Shown: positions 1 to 7,599 of the stretch, in pieces
Position numbering within the stretch: the stretch's first letter is position 1
Layout of the letters: the number at the start of each line of letters is the position of its first letter
Assembly: GCA_031414595.1 (NCBI GenBank)
Contig: JANNVX010000071.1
Span: 1 to 21,380 of the forward strand
Direction: 5' to 3'
Origin: Deinococcales bacterium
GTDB taxonomy: Bacteria; Deinococcota; Deinococci; Deinococcales; JAAFIG01
DNA length: 21,380 bases
Program-made: the position numbers and the translations under genes
The notes under the pieces: generated by a model
Databases searched by the model: none
Seen by the model: the letters and a program-made list of their open reading frames with translations, nothing else
What the model was told of the DNA's origin: nothing

Positions 1-188
1 TTCATTAAGTGACTGGTACAGCCGTAACATCATATTTTTGACTTTTAGTGAGTAGGTCTGCATTCAAATGACTTTACCAAACCGAGAACCGAATGACACT
101 ATTCTTGAAATCGGGAAGTTATTCTGGGACAAATCCTAAGATTCTTCCTATCGAATTATTTGAAATGGGTATGTTGTACAAAAATTAA

Positions 189-215
189 AGAACGAAAGCA
201 AAATGCTTTCGTTCT
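189..215 (-). terminator. Intrinsic terminator downstream of the RNase R-like gene (possibly bidirectional)
   Basis: Perfect 12-bp stem AGAACGAAAGCA/TGCTTTCGTTCT with a 3-nt loop, A/T runs on both sides, 12 nt past the stop codon at 228. Confidence 0.8.
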
Positions 216-227
216 ATTTTAATTATT

Positions 228-3200
228 TTATGCGGCTGGTGTTTTACGGACGTTTGGACGGCGGCGTGAACGGTAGGCTGGCTTGGTCACTTCGGTGGTC
301 TCGAGAATAACAGGTTCAGCAACTGGGGCTGGAGCATTCTGAGCGCGGTTAGCATTGCGTTCAAGCGCTTGCATCTGGCGTTGCCTTAAGGCTTCGATTC
401 TCGAGTTGCGGCTGGTGTCTGGTTGGGCAGCAGCAACATGGCTTGGGCGGCGCGGCGGAGTTGACACGGCGGCGTTTTCAGGGCGCAGTGGGTGCGGACG
501 GCGTTGATTGGGATTATTTTCGACTCTAGCAGGGCGTGGTTGACTTCCAGCGAGACGTGGTTCACTTCCAGCGAGACGTGGTTCACTTGGGCGGCGCACT
601 TCGGCATTGCCTTTTTGGGGCGGTCGGTTGTGGCGCGGGGCGGGGCGTGTCCCCATTTCAAACTCTGGATTTTCGCCCTCGAGTTCGACAAATTTTTCTC
701 TGCTCCATTCACCAAAGTAAAGTTTGCGAGCGGTGATTCTGACTGGACGGGGATATTCGGCTCGAGGGCGGTTGCCTAAGACAACCACGCCCCTTCGGGT
801 GATGGTTTTGCCTACGCTTGGTTTAGCTCCTGCTATTGCAGGGCTACTCGCGTTTGCGCCCGGTTTACGGCGGCGCAATCTACTCATGTGGGACTCCTTT
901 TGGTGCAAGACAAGTTGTGCCTCGCGGGTGGCAGGGCGGGTTTTTTCAACCACAACCCGAACAATACTGCCCGGCTTAAAGACCCTGCCGAGGCGGGTTT
1001 TCCATTGGTGTGGCGAGTGCGTCGCTTCTTCACCAAGGTCTTCTAAAGTTAATTTACCAATTGCGCCGTTCTCGAGAACAATTTCTAAGGCAAATTCGGT
1101 AATCCCAATCACCACACCACGCATTGGATAGGTTTGGTTGAGGTTTTTAATCAGTTGAAACTGCTCTAAATTCGCTTGGGCATTTTGGACATTTTGTTCT
1201 AAGCGTTGCAAATTGGCAGCAATATTTGGCAGATTCTCGAGCAAATTCTCGCGTTTGCGTTGCGATAATTTGGTGGCACACCAGCCTAGGATTCGGATAT
1301 TGATAAAGTCGGCGGCTCGAGTCAGTGGGTTTTGCAGCACCAAACCTTCACTGGCTGCACTTGAATGAATGGCTTGTAAACTGCTGGGTTGAGTCAGCTT
1401 GTAGTTCAGGGTACGAATCACAAGGCTATTTGGGTCAAAACCACTCGAACGCTCCAAAGCCGATGGCAGTTCTGGACTGGTTTTACCTGCCACGCGGTAC
1501 AGTGCCGTCACATCCGAAGCCGCGATTGCTGTGGCACAAAGTCGGGCAGCAAGGGTTAAAGCACTGTCTAAACCACCAATTTGTTTAATCAAATTCTGCT
1601 CGAGTTCGGTGGCTTCTTTTAAGTATGCCACCACGCCAACCACACTCGGACGCACCACATAATTGACCAAATCGCCAGTGCTGCTGGTTTCGATTAAAAC
1701 CGACAAGGCTAGGCGCTCAGAATCTGGCACAAACTGGATTGCGTTTAGAAGCGAACTTGGAAAAAGTGGAATTTGAAAGCCCCCAAGGTTGCAAGCTGCG
1801 CCTCGTTGCAGCAGTACCTTCTCGAGGGCAGTGTTTTCGTCTATCCAGTGTGGCGCATCGGCATAATGAATCGCCAGTAAAACATTGCCGTTGCCCAAAG
1901 GTTCAATTTGTAAAGCAAGCTCTAAACTGGGCAGGGTATAGACCCGTTTGCCGCGTAAATCAATGCGTCCTTTGAGGTCTTTAGCCGTGATGATGCCAAG
2001 TTTAGGCAGTTCTTTTAGTACCTCACTAGAAAAGGCTTCAGGTAGCCCAAAGCGTGTCATTACAGCCGCCCGTTCAGCTTCGATAGAACTGGCATCCCCT
2101 AGAACACTTTTGACTCGAGCCACAGCTTCATCTTCGCCCGTGTCTTCTGGGTAGAGAATATCGGCAACCAAACGCGTTCCCGCACTTAAATCGTTTGCCT
2201 CTAAGGTCAGGCTTGGCAGATGGGTTTCATCTGGGCGCAACAGCGCATAACCTCGTTTATACTCGAGTGTTCCAGTCAGGGTTTCTCTGGCGCGTTCCAA
2301 GACCCGAATCACTTCGCCTTCGCTCTGCCCATTGCGCCGCAATTCCCTTGCGACCACACGGTCATTGTGCCAAGCAAATAAAAGCGACGCACTTGGAATC
2401 AGCATTGAACGCAACCCCGGTGTATCTGGGGTAAACCAACCTGAGCCATCAGCACGAATCTCGAGCCGCCCGACCACTGGTATCAATTCACGACTTGGTT
2501 GAAACATCCCACGTTTTGGGGCAATTAAATAGCCCATCCGTTCAAGACTTGCCACCGCATCCTCGAGTCCTTTGCGTCCGCCTAGCCGTTCAAGCAAGGC
2601 TTGGTCAAGGTCAGCCGATAATTCACGGCTATTTAAGCCATTTGGATTGGCTCTAAAATGCTCGAGCAGTGCTTCAAAGGGGTTATACAACGCGCCTTGG
2701 TAGGAAAAAAGATGTTCCTTGGCTTCGCGCCGCAAGCGCACCAATTTTTTAGCGATTGGCGCTTCGGGGATGACTTCTAGTGTTTCTGGATTCAGGGTTG
2801 GGGTACTGGTTTCGGACAATTCTGGGTCTGGCAAACCCTCGAGCGCTTCTGGCTTGGGTAGGTTTGGCTTGCGCCCTCGAGTCTTAACCACTGGAATAAC
2901 TGGTGTGGGGTCAGCGACTTTTTTGGGTCTGCCTCGAGTCTTGGCTTTGGGGGCTTCTGGGATTACTTCAACAGGCTGTATTTGGATTGGTTCTGGAATT
3001 GGTTCAACAACTTGTTTTGGAATTGGTTCAACAACTTGTTTTTTGGCTCTACCTCGAGTTTTTGCTAGAGGTATGATGGTTTCCGTCAATATTTCTGGGA
3101 CTTCAATCACCTTTGGGGCTTTTTTCGCTTCTTGTTCTAAGGTAATGCTTGGCAATGTCTCTTTTTTTAGTCGTCTTCGCTTGACTGGCTCGAGAACTGG

Positions 3201-3395
3201 CTCAGACACAAGCTCACTAACTGGCTCAGACACAGGCTCAGAGACCGCCACTTTACGCCGACGCACTTTTGCAACAACCTCTTTTGGATTAAGGGTTACT
3301 TCTGGTATGGCTTGGAGAGTGGCTTCAAAAAGCGGCTTGACTTCGGACTCTTCTGGTTTTTTACGTTTACGAACAGATTGACTTGAGGTGCTAAT
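228..3395 (-). CDS. rnr: RNase R-like (RNB-family) protein, apparently catalytically degenerate, with long low-complexity N- and C-terminal extensions
   Basis: HTH-like segment (LERMGYLIAPKRG), cold-shock/OB domains (GRLEIRADGSGWFTPD; AWHNDRV..GEVIRVLERA..LTGTL), RNB landmarks (RFGLPEAFS, RIDLRG, IHYADAPHWI, ERLALSV) and an S1-like domain (GVVIGITEFALEIVLENGAIG). ORF-track start is GTG at 3266, but the frame is open up to ATT at 3395, 5 nt after a TAAGGAG Shine-Dalgarno. Confidence 0.8.
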   Translation of the reverse strand: MSTSSQSVRKRKKPEESEVKPLFEATLQAIPEVTLNPKEVVAKVRRRKVAVSEPVSEPVSELVSEPVLEPVKRRRLKKETLPSITLEQEAKKAPKVIEVPEILTETIIPLAKTRGRAKKQVVEPIPKQVVEPIPEPIQIQPVEVIPEAPKAKTRGRPKKVADPTPVIPVVKTRGRKPNLPKPEALEGLPDPELSETSTPTLNPETLEVIPEAPIAKKLVRLRREAKEHLFSYQGALYNPFEALLEHFRANPNGLNSRELSADLDQALLERLGGRKGLEDAVASLERMGYLIAPKRGMFQPSRELIPVVGRLEIRADGSGWFTPDTPGLRSMLIPSASLLFAWHNDRVVARELRRNGQSEGEVIRVLERARETLTGTLEYKRGYALLRPDETHLPSLTLEANDLSAGTRLVADILYPEDTGEDEAVARVKSVLGDASSIEAERAAVMTRFGLPEAFSSEVLKELPKLGIITAKDLKGRIDLRGKRVYTLPSLELALQIEPLGNGNVLLAIHYADAPHWIDENTALEKVLLQRGAACNLGGFQIPLFPSSLLNAIQFVPDSERLALSVLIETSSTGDLVNYVVRPSVVGVVAYLKEATELEQNLIKQIGGLDSALTLAARLCATAIAASDVTALYRVAGKTSPELPSALERSSGFDPNSLVIRTLNYKLTQPSSLQAIHSSAASEGLVLQNPLTRAADFINIRILGWCATKLSQRKRENLLENLPNIAANLQRLEQNVQNAQANLEQFQLIKNLNQTYPMRGVVIGITEFALEIVLENGAIGKLTLEDLGEEATHSPHQWKTRLGRVFKPGSIVRVVVEKTRPATREAQLVLHQKESHMSRLRRRKPGANASSPAIAGAKPSVGKTITRRGVVVLGNRPRAEYPRPVRITARKLYFGEWSREKFVELEGENPEFEMGTRPAPRHNRPPQKGNAEVRRPSEPRLAGSEPRLAGSQPRPARVENNPNQRRPHPLRPENAAVSTPPRRPSHVAAAQPDTSRNSRIEALRQRQMQALERNANRAQNAPAPVAEPVILETTEVTKPAYRSRRRPNVRKTPAA
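535..588. repeat. 21-bp in-frame tandem repeat (about 2.6 copies, SEPRLAG)
   Basis: CGTGGTTGACTTCCAGCGAGA, CGTGGTTCACTTCCAGCGAGA, CGTGGTTCACTT. Confidence 0.9.
2994..3041. repeat. 24-bp perfect in-frame duplication (KQVVEPIP x2)
   Basis: TGGAATTGGTTCAACAACTTGTTT repeated twice. Confidence 0.9.
3183..3246. repeat. Degenerate 12-bp in-frame repeat (VSEP-like x5)
   Basis: Protein VSEPVSEPVSELVSEPVLEPV; DNA units such as CTGGCTCAGACA. Confidence 0.75.
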
Positions 3396-3552: not shown

Positions 3553-3954
3553 CTACTCGAGCAATTCACGTAAATACTGGGGAATTGGAATGGCTCTTTT
3601 CTCGAAATCGGTGGCGATATGTTCGGTTGAACCCTCCGCAATCAGTGCCGAGTCGGTTTGACGCTCGATGGCATATTCAAAGCGCACCAAACGCGATTTT
3701 AATGCACCAACCCGAGTGGTCAGTAGCAATTCATCATCAAAAACGGCGGCTCGGCGGTACTTAACGGCTGCACCAGAAACCACCAATAAGACCCCCCGTT
3801 TTTCGACTTCGCGGTAAGGCAACCCTAATTGGGTAAGAAAATCCACCCTGCCCATCTCGAGCCAAACCAAGTAATTGCTGTGATGAGCGATTCCCATTGC
3901 GTCAGTCTCGGCGTAACGCACCCGGAACCGAGTTTGTGATTGTTTAACTGGCAT
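3553..3954 (-). CDS. Acyl-CoA thioesterase, YbgC/FadM (4HBT hot-dog) family
   Basis: Motif RVRYAETDAMGIAHHSNYLVWLEMGR and YRRAAVFDDEL. Start chosen at ATG 3954 (TATGCT + 7 nt, leaderless pattern); the ORF track starts at 3966. Confidence 0.9.
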   Translation of the reverse strand: MPVKQSQTRFRVRYAETDAMGIAHHSNYLVWLEMGRVDFLTQLGLPYREVEKRGVLLVVSGAAVKYRRAAVFDDELLLTTRVGALKSRLVRFEYAIERQTDSALIAEGSTEHIATDFEKRAIPIPQYLRELLE

Positions 3955-4045
3955 GTGCAGCAGCATACACCGCTTAATGGCTTAGACTACAAAGTTTGCA
4001 AAAGTAAAGAAGCATGTCATAATCCCCATCAATGAGGAATACAGG

Positions 4046-4843
4046 GTGTTAAAAGGGAATGTCAGCGATTTTCCGTTGGTCAGCATATTGCAAATGCTTG
4101 AACGCGACACACGAACCGGTTCGGTGCGGCTCGAGTATGCCCAAGGCGCACTGATTAGCGTCATTGCTGGCAAGGTTGTCCATGCTATCTACCCACCTTC
4201 TAAGGGTGAGCGAGCTTTAAGTTTAATCTCGAGTTTTCAAAGTGCAGCTTTTGAATTCTTTGAGAATAAATTACCCAACGAACAAACGATTAAACGCCCA
4301 ATGCAATTATTACTGATGGAACTACACAGCGAAAACCTCGAGTGGAAAAAAATTCGCCATCGCCTAAAAAATTGGACACTCGCCCCACAATGGGTTGGGG
4401 CAATCCCGAGCGGTAACAACCCTGAACGGCTCGAGGTCATCGGCTTAATAGACGGAATACGCAGCATCGAAGATATTATTCATATTTGTGATTTACCGCC
4501 ACGCCGCACTGCCGAAATTTTAGTCGAATTTACCAATGAACGCCTTGTGCTGCTTGGCAGTGCCAGTCAGATTACCCAGCCGCTCGAGTTGATGGTCTTA
4601 CCGATTTTTGCCCCAGATGAAGCCACGATTTTTGTAGACCAAACCTTGTACGACCAATGGAAAGCCATTTATGGGACAGTTCTCGCCACCGTCATCAGTC
4701 AAAAAGGAGACCGACAAATGTTTCGAGTCAGGGGACGCGAAAACAGTTTAGGGCGAGTCCAAATGGCTGAAATTGCGGTTAGAAAACTCAAATTGGCTCG
4801 CGGTGTCAAGGTCAGAATCGTTCCATCTGGCGGTACACGCTAA
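4046..4843 (+). CDS. DUF4388 (PATAN-like) domain protein
   Basis: N-terminal LKGNVSDFPLVSILQMLERDTRTGSVRL..GKVVHA; central wHTH-like IDGIRSIEDI; GAGG SD before GTG. Confidence 0.8.
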   Translation: MLKGNVSDFPLVSILQMLERDTRTGSVRLEYAQGALISVIAGKVVHAIYPPSKGERALSLISSFQSAAFEFFENKLPNEQTIKRPMQLLLMELHSENLEWKKIRHRLKNWTLAPQWVGAIPSGNNPERLEVIGLIDGIRSIEDIIHICDLPPRRTAEILVEFTNERLVLLGSASQITQPLELMVLPIFAPDEATIFVDQTLYDQWKAIYGTVLATVISQKGDRQMFRVRGRENSLGRVQMAEIAVRKLKLARGVKVRIVPSGGTR

Positions 4844-6973: not shown

Positions 6974-7599
6974 GTCTGATTTTAGAAGTCGAGAACTTAA
7001 ATGTCACCCTGTCTGGTACAAAAATTCTCGAGGAGATTGGTTTTAATGTCGAAGCTGGGGCGTTACTGCGTTTTACGGGTCGAAATGGCGCAGGCAAGAG
7101 TACCTTGTTACGGGCAATTGCTGGGCTAATTCCGTTTGTCGGGCAGGTGCTGATTGACAGAGCGAAACCGATGACCTTAGCCGCCAAGAAAAAAACTTTG
7201 TTTGTGCCGGACGAAGCAGCCCTCTATGAGGATTTAACGGTTTTAGAACACGCCCAATTTGTGGCACGGCTGTACGAGCAACCGCAAGCCGAGATGCAAA
7301 TTCAGCTTTGGCTCGAGAAGTTTTTTTTAACCAACCGCCTTAAAGATGTGCCTTCCGAGTTCTCGAGGGGAATGCGACAAAAATTATCGTTATCTTTAGC
7401 CCTTGGTTTAGAAGCACCACTGTTAATGCTCGACGAACCTTTTAATGCCCTTGACCAAGATGCCCAAATTGCACTGGGCGCAGCCCTCGAAGCCCGAGCC
7501 GAGGCAGGGGGCTGCGTGCTTTTTAGCGCTCATCAGTTGGATTTACCTTTTTCTAACGCCAGTGTTCTAGCCCTCGAGAACGGGCGGTTGCTCGAGTGA
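6970..7599 (+). CDS. ABC transporter ATP-binding protein (EcsA/CcmA-like)
   Basis: Walker A GRNGAGKST, signature FSRGMRQ, Walker B LLMLDEP, H-loop SAH; GTGA overlap with the DinB gene. Confidence 0.92.
   Translation: MSLILEVENLNVTLSGTKILEEIGFNVEAGALLRFTGRNGAGKSTLLRAIAGLIPFVGQVLIDRAKPMTLAAKKKTLFVPDEAALYEDLTVLEHAQFVARLYEQPQAEMQIQLWLEKFFLTNRLKDVPSEFSRGMRQKLSLSLALGLEAPLLMLDEPFNALDQDAQIALGAALEARAEAGGCVLFSAHQLDLPFSNASVLALENGRLLE

Follow-up and report, generated by a model that had tools for sequence, protein, structure and literature searches.

A conserved RNase R ortholog that has lost its catalytic aspartates in Deinococcales, a candidate bacterial pseudonuclease

Can a bacterial lineage abandon the nuclease activity of its only RNase R, ordinarily a near-universal enzyme of RNA degradation, and go on keeping the protein? 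The question is raised by a gene in a 21,380-nucleotide stretch of DNA from a Deinococcales bacterium (GenBank assembly GCA_031414595.1, contig JANNVX010000071.1; GTDB lineage Deinococcales, JAAFIG01), which we analysed at full length and call the window. The whole coding sequence of a degenerate RNase R ortholog lies at 228..3266 on the reverse strand (1012 aa from a GTG start, with the stop codon at 228-230), inside an open reading frame (ORF) of 1058 codons from stop to stop that carries both landmark motifs. A sequence-only reading of this DNA had described an RNase R homolog with an erased active site, an intact frame of more than 1000 codons, and retained helix-turn-helix (HTH), cold-shock and S1 modules, and had proposed a repurposed RNA-binding or scaffold protein; as ways of checking this it named alignment to PF00773 and TIGR02063, superposition of an AlphaFold model on RNase R, a search for a second intact rnr, and the ratio of nonsynonymous to synonymous substitution rates (dN/dS) among orthologs. 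We carried out each of these analyses, and comparison of the sequences supports that proposal. We consider it likely that the protein is a non-catalytic RNA-binding, possibly ribosome-binding, derivative of a sole RNase R, kept by selection after the activity was lost.

The erosion of the catalytic centre is visible in the translation itself. Positions 1905-1967 (-) translate to RIDLRGKRVYTLPSLELALQI, in which TLPSLELAL (aa 444-452, 1911..1937, (-)) stands in place of the DxxxxxDxDD of motif I, which supplies the Mg2+ ligands and a contact to the 3'-OH, and LQNPLTRAADF (aa 644-654, 1305..1337, (-)) stands in place of the HFTSPIRRYPD of motif IV, both exactly as the sequence-only reading had given them. 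HMMER alignment with B. subtilis RNase R (8cdu_C, E 1.6e-30, aa 232-545) sets TID-GADAK-DLDD opposite TLP-----SLEL and FTSPIRRYPD opposite LQNPLTRAAD. Within motif I, P stands at D201, E at D209 and L at D210; D207 is lost, and the loop is shorter by five residues. The eleven residues of motif IV have become VLQNPLTRAAD. The Pfam RNB family (PF00773) is still matched at 61.2 bits, above its gathering threshold of 29.3, over only aa 448-550 and profile positions 20-123 of 326; the RNase R equivalog TIGR02063 reaches 128.8 bits, below its cut-off of 597.85, over only profile positions 30-362 of 711. On alignment to both families, the catalytic core is gone.

The losses extend well beyond the metal-binding motif. 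We aligned the core of the window protein with 12 members of its clade and 47 intact relatives (alignment A2) and listed every column that is at least 85% conserved in the intact set. All 13 clade rows have replaced the Tyr of SVY (by N, Q, H, D, S or A), a second invariant Tyr 58 residues further on (by E, S, N, R, G or D) and the HFGLA block; the clade has also lost the His, the Thr-Ser and the first Arg of motif IV, together with the His of the subsequent HR. Judged by their spacing, 43 and ~100 residues past the last Asp, the two missing Tyr would be the counterparts of RNase II Y253 and Y313, which are described as forming the substrate clamp (2025 review PMC12320835). Motifs I and IV are 200 aa apart, compared with a median of 295 (range 286-308) in 133 intact relatives, so the earlier estimate of ~215 versus ~300 was right in substance. 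Counted from RxDLR up to the helix that precedes S1, the segment measures ~272 aa versus 368 aa in the intact ortholog P0020, and ~95 residues of the RNB domain have been deleted. As reported in PMC8097288, mutating these Asp abolishes the activity of prokaryotic and eukaryotic RNB domains, and RNB domains without them are unambiguously inactive. Chance does not explain these substitutions, since every one of the 20 full-length clade members has them. On these residues, the protein is almost certainly nuclease-dead, and its 3'-5' exoribonuclease activity is predicted to be absent.

Database searches define how far the degenerate form reaches. Searching 5.8 billion proteins by word index brought up 26 matches, and in 18 of them (P0002-P0019, 41-97% identity) the site is likewise degenerate. 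P0020 (32% identity, 1089 aa) has the same N- and C-terminal extensions, with both TIDGKDAKDFDDA and HFTSPIRRYPD intact. When 1.84 billion cluster representatives were searched exhaustively with HMMER, 4243 matched at E up to 1e-3, and among these only P0003, P0015, P0029 and the fragments P0032 and P0034 showed an unbroken match to the core. Among 174 collected proteins of at least 300 aa, motif I is missing only from the 20 full-length clade members and from fragments P0032 and P0034; 19 others keep motif I and do not match the motif IV pattern, and these are 335-749 aa long and mostly fragment-like. Within the clade two grades can be told apart. Sixteen proteins (grade 1) have the 5-aa deletion and a distance of 196-198 aa from the QxEP landmark to motif IV, and four proteins of the type found in genus g3 (grade 2) keep the loop length but have lost the Asp (e.g., AARIYADAPLEVGV), with the landmarks 208-215 aa apart; the spacing is 284 aa in intact P0020 and P0030. 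The result is an ordered series: in genera g2, g4 and g5 the protein is intact, in g3 it has lost the Asp and is still longer, and in g1, the genus of the window, it has been deleted further. Such a series could map the parts of RNase R that serve non-catalytic roles. It also means that the family-level label 'exoribonuclease R' carried by the source names misannotates these proteins.

The degenerate proteins descend from a true rnr and form a single group. A maximum-likelihood tree of 35 proteins, comprising 16 of the 20 loci L002-L021 (L004, L008, L010 and L014 were omitted as near-duplicates or fragments) and 19 database proteins, places all 14 degenerate rows on one side of a branch with a Shimodaira-Hasegawa-like approximate likelihood ratio test (SH-aLRT) support of 100, on a stem of 0.69, and as sister to four intact rows from g5 (support 98). 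Removal of the RNB columns, which leaves 623 columns, gives the same grouping (support 100, sister to g5 at 96, stem 0.50). Since the degenerate proteins are one clade nested among intact orthologs, one loss suffices: the single origin lies in the common ancestor of g1 and g3, two genera of this uncultured family of Deinococcus relatives, and the missing residues suggest that exoribonuclease activity was lost there. The genomic setting agrees with the tree. A co-directional gene for a 4HBT thioesterase (3553..3966, (-)) lies upstream as a conserved neighbour; it is directly upstream in G000, G006 and G003 of the same genus and in the intact G011 of the sister genus, while G013, the only g3 locus examined, has different neighbours. 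This conserved neighbour supports positional orthology and suggests no function; together with the position in the tree, it identifies the gene as an rnr ortholog rather than a diverged paralog. At the intact G011 locus (L024, contig C50, 10516-11213, (-)) the gene order is a phosphoglucomutase-like gene, an unassigned 113-aa ORF, rbfA, the thioesterase gene and rnr. In the window, a DUF4388 gene (4046-4843, (+)) lies divergently beside the thioesterase-rnr pair; DUF4388 followed by an Na:alanine symporter gene is also found in G006, and DUF4388 adjoins in G003.

No active RNB enzyme appears alongside the degenerate one. The window's own genome, 94% complete in 120 contigs, contains a single RNB match, which is the gene described here; a query with P0020 found no second copy in it, only a weak 15-bit match in another gene, in a frame to which the PNPase model also aligned with its C-terminal, S1-like end. 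Across the 19 genomes of the family, nine carry only the degenerate form (7 of 8 in g1 and 2 of 2 in g3), with RNB scores of 55-74 bits or, in the single-contig 5.1-Mb genome G013, three pieces of 24-33 bits. Seven genomes (g2, g4 and g5) have one intact RNB gene scoring 363-381 bits, and three, which are 57%, 74% and 82% complete, gave no RNB match; in two of these three, pieces of the ortholog's N-terminal part lie at contig ends. All 22 of the 22 genomes from the order's four remaining families have an intact RNB. The P0020 query likewise found no second RNB copy in G006, G009 or G013, and a second RNB gene is absent from all nine genomes with the degenerate form, which answers for the own genome and eight others the question of whether an intact rnr stands elsewhere. 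The own genome does have PNPase (964.7 bits) and RNase J (524.8 bits).

Loss of the active site has not been followed by decay of the gene. We computed Nei-Gojobori (NG86) dN/dS on codon alignments of six genomic orthologs from the window's genus, relying on three close pairs (dS 0.18-0.23) because dS in the deeper pairs is saturated (1.4-4.6 or undefined). Over the whole gene, these unsaturated pairs give a dN/dS of 0.15-0.19. The two halves of the RNB remnant come out at 0.07-0.10 (aa 419-560) and 0.04-0.18 (aa 561-700), CSD1 at 0-0.04, S1 at 0-0.05 and the N-terminal extension at 0.28-0.44. The frame is intact in six full-length genomic orthologs and in metagenome proteins down to 41% identity; it is open over 972-1137 codons in seven genomes from two genera (L002-L007 and L009) and over 1178 codons in G013 (g3). 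The gene is held by purifying selection and is not decaying neutrally.

What selection has preserved is the architecture of RNase R. We ran AlphaFold2 on aa 186-870 with a 60-row alignment, and obtained a model with a mean predicted local distance difference test score (pLDDT) of 88.7 and a predicted template modelling score (pTM) of 0.78, in which confidence falls only past ~aa 790. Foldseek finds RNase R as the top match (8cdu_C, E 3.2e-39; TM 0.65/0.68 to 7dic_A), and VIA-align superposes the model on M. genitalium RNase R (Z 29.8, root-mean-square deviation (rmsd) 3.5 A over 518 residues), E. coli RNase R (Z 29.0, rmsd 3.6 A over 492 residues) and yeast Ssd1 (7am1_B, Z 27.7). In the model, the arrangement of HTH, CSD1, CSD2, RNB and S1 is retained around a smaller RNB domain. 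The superposition and the family searches agree with the modules listed in the sequence-only reading, the two cold-shock domains by Pfam match and the HTH and S1 domains through the model.

The domains follow one another along the reverse strand. A helical, HTH or winged-helix N-terminal domain (aa 186-262, 2481..2711, (-)) comprises model helices 2-59 and strands; it is covered by the structural alignment with the N-terminus of 8cdu_C (model 9..605 on chain 4..710), and the TIGR02063 match begins within it, at aa 225. Next come cold-shock domain 1 (OB_RNB, PF08206, 29.9 bits at aa 266-322; aa 263-328, 2283..2480, (-)) and cold-shock domain 2 (PF17876, 28.2 bits at aa 358-413; aa 329-418, 2013..2282, (-)), both above the Pfam cut-offs. 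The reduced RNB domain (aa 419-707, 1146..2012, (-)), with its catalytic and substrate-clamping residues replaced, is modelled mostly at pLDDT >90. It is followed by an S1-like beta-barrel (aa 708-790, 897..1145, (-)) that contains a clade-conserved QWKTRLGRVFKPGSIVRV stretch and matches S1 domains by fold (VIA-align Z 12.0).

Both ends of the protein are extended. The N-terminal extension (aa 1-185, 2712..3266, (-)) is rich in Pro, Lys and Arg (isoelectric point (pI) 9.8), carries three K/T-RGR-(P)KK motifs and short peptide repeats, and is also found in intact orthologs. The RGR motifs AKTRGRAKKQV, AKTRGRPKKVA and VKTRGRKPNLP lie at 2856-3065 (-) (aa 68-137), and P0020 has the counterpart SRQRGRPKKAV. 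The KTRGRPKK motifs look like the AT-hook consensus, a resemblance only, as Pfam (E up to 1) gave no AT-hook family. Copy number of the short repeats at 231-560 and 3150-3266 (-) varies among close orthologs: SEPV/SEPVSE types lie at the N-terminus and SEPRLAG occurs twice in the C-terminal tail, where P0003 has copies of the EPRHAGT type. The C-terminal region (aa 791-1012, 231..896, (-)) is very basic (pI 11.7, 45 Lys and Arg) and holds the SEPRLAG repeat, a conserved ALERNANRA stretch and a motif, RRGVVVLGNRPRAEYPRPVRITARKLYFGEWSREKF (aa 825-860, 687..794, (-)), that is common to intact orthologs. It has the form RRGVVVL..PR.EY.RPVR.TARKLYFGEWSR and is kept in all degenerate proteins that reach that point; the motif also occurs in intact orthologs P0020, P0030, P0031 and P0040 (848 aa). 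Because model confidence is low there, this is probably a linear motif, and it may be a lineage-specific docking motif of RNase R in the order Deinococcales.

Taken together with the losses, these features suggest how the protein might act. RNA would be bound through the ring of HTH, CSD1, CSD2 and S1 domains around the shrunken RNB scaffold, with the basic lineage-specific N- and C-terminal tails and the conserved C-terminal motif RPVRITARKLYFGEWSR adding to the binding. The protein would hold RNA and not degrade it, the most plausible targets being single-stranded 3' regions or ribosomal 30S RNA, and would serve as an RNA-binding, chaperone or ribosome-associated factor instead of a nuclease. 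The task of 3'-to-5' decay would then fall to PNPase, and the genome also has RNase J. By analogy, a link to the ribosome is plausible, because E. coli RNase R is reported to bind ribosomes (PMC3942186) and the B. subtilis enzyme to bind 30S subunits (8cdu; PMC10901742).

Several observations pull against this interpretation. RNA binding we infer solely from the retained domains, and one of these is altered: several S1 consensus residues have changed, and the Pfam S1 score of 17.2 bits is below the cut-off of 22. The RNB remnant is ~2-5 times less constrained than the intact RNB domain of sister genus g5 (dN/dS 0.025-0.040 at dS 0.44-0.66, six pairs), yet far from neutral, and this weaker constraint means that part of it may be a mere spacer. 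The reliable ratios come from three close pairs, and the trees are quick searches with SH-aLRT as their only support. A search of sequencing runs for the gene returned 13 DNA runs and no RNA run among those listed. The surviving Glu at the D209 position (18 of 20 clade members) leaves a rebuilt metal site formally possible.

That Glu is the starting point for supposing that exoribonuclease activity persists in the protein by way of migrated or alternative acidic residues; D436, D470, D653 and E690 are further acidic positions that are invariant in the clade alignment, and the overall RNase R fold is retained in the model. We regard this as very improbable. The Glu is the sole acidic residue left in motif I and is itself Gln in P0015 and P0016, the other three positions are P, S, L or deleted, and both putative clamp Tyr, the first Arg of SPIRR and the His of HFTSP have gone along with the ~95 deleted residues of the catalytic domain, in a family whose members are described as inactive once the catalytic Asp are removed (PMC8097288). 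Least probable of all is slow neutral decay of a pseudogene, or an artefact in the assembly of one metagenome-assembled genome. Very low RNB family scores and a long stem branch, with or without the RNB columns, are what such decay might leave, but open frames across two genera, independent metagenome proteins of the same form, a dN/dS that is at most 0.18 even in the RNB remnant, and a confident fold prediction already contradict it.

Two further possibilities accept the loss of catalysis and differ over what remained. One is that only the RNA-unwinding function of RNase R was kept, making the protein an RNA helicase or chaperone. According to earlier work cited in 10.1101/2023.06.01.543265, the cold sensitivity of an E. 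coli csdA mutant is complemented by overexpression of RNase R, possibly because the enzyme acts as a helicase, and helicase activity is attributed to the E. coli RNB domain. Passive strand separation or chaperoning remains compatible with what we see. Unwinding has, however, been located in a tri-helix wedge at residues 487-545 of E. coli RNase R (PMC5714204). The presumed counterpart here (from YR.HE.P to LRS..A.Y, equated by position and not by E. coli numbering) lacks 31 alignment columns relative to P0020, and in the model of PMC5714204 it is RNA hydrolysis, lost here, that drives unwinding. With the wedge region shortened and unwinding modelled as hydrolysis-driven, a pure unwinding role becomes less likely, and we think it improbable. 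The other possibility, unlikely but with rather more in its favour, is a protein that acts mainly as a scaffold or a ribosome-bound factor (on 30S subunits or other RNases), with RNA binding secondary and the tails as its working parts. Conservation of the RPVRITARKLYFGEWSR motif and the basic tails extends across degenerate and intact orthologs, the ribosome and 30S binding reported for RNase R in E. coli and B. subtilis (PMC3942186, PMC10901742) would suit such a role, and at one locus from the sister genus with the intact form, rbfA and the thioesterase gene precede rnr. Against it, the rbfA linkage was not seen in the g1 loci examined, and the partner to be scaffolded is purely hypothetical.

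A non-catalytic RNA-binding derivative of RNase R therefore remains the reading that we favour, and it invites a bolder one. If the only RNB gene of a genome was inactivated and then conserved, its product must have a function without RNA cleavage. We entertain, tentatively and as a doubtful proposal, that two uncultured genera free of RNB exoribonucleases have turned their single RNase R, an enzyme counted as a core bacterial RNase in the 2025 review PMC12320835, into a dedicated non-catalytic factor, a natural separation-of-function allele that isolates a cryptic nuclease-independent role. Were this true, the role proposed for P. syringae RNase R, in protection from stress and DNA damage or as a ribosome or RNA chaperone, would have been isolated by nature in a stress-resistant phylum. 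Our literature search found no natural bacterial pseudo-RNB protein in print, and the pseudonuclease papers that it returned concern fungi or eukaryotic complexes.

Elsewhere in the window, an 802-aa ORF at 12012-14420 (-) encodes both a Tectonin domain (47.7 bits) and, at aa 316-606, a thiol-activated cytolysin domain (110.3 bits), and this pairing of Tectonin with a cholesterol-dependent-cytolysin-like pore-forming domain is unusual for an environmental Deinococcales genome. A 952-aa ORF at 8999-11857 (-) has a weak DUF7223 match only (28.5 bits), and a 457-aa ORF at 7596-8969 (+), after an ABC ATPase gene, has no Pfam match.

Among known systems, the window protein stands close to bacterial RNase R, to which it is orthologous by tree and synteny. 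It shares the domain order of the enzymes from B. subtilis (8CDU), E. coli (5XGU) and M. genitalium (7DIC/7DID). The HTH-CSD1-CSD2-RNB-S1 architecture with a basic tail and the descent from rnr are those of an RNase R, while the TIGR02063 score, motif I, motif IV and the clamp Tyr are not. The 185-aa N-terminal and ~220-aa C-terminal extensions and the RNB segment of ~272 aa (368 in P0020) further distinguish it. Nuclease-dead RNase R has been made in P. syringae Lz4W, as D284A and as double and triple Asp mutants, and the RNB domain alone with D284A is reported to protect moderately (10.1101/2023.06.01.543265), so a nuclease-independent function of RNase R has experimental precedent. The conserved dead RNase R described here fits the 'cryptic' function deduced in that report from point mutants. 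Those are laboratory substitutions in a complete RNB domain, unlike the loss in Deinococcales, which is natural, ancient and accompanied by large deletions.

The likeness to the fungal pseudonucleases Ssd1 and Sts5 (PDB 7AM1; PMC8934651, PMC8097288) is one of outcome, in that the Asp of DxxxxxDxDD are lost while the CSD1-CSD2-RNB-S1 fold is kept and the protein is conserved, here under purifying selection. The origin is different. Ssd1 derives from Dis3L2, whereas the window protein groups in our trees with the bacterial RNase R of its own family and therefore arose independently, from RNase R. The routes differ as well, since the site has been eroded here by deletions and, according to PMC8097288, is blocked in Ssd1 by loop insertions, and the window protein differs further in carrying lineage-specific tails. 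Ascomycete yeasts are also reported to keep the active enzyme Dis3 (PMC8097288), unlike the genome studied here, in which no active RNB paralog accompanies the degenerate RNase R.

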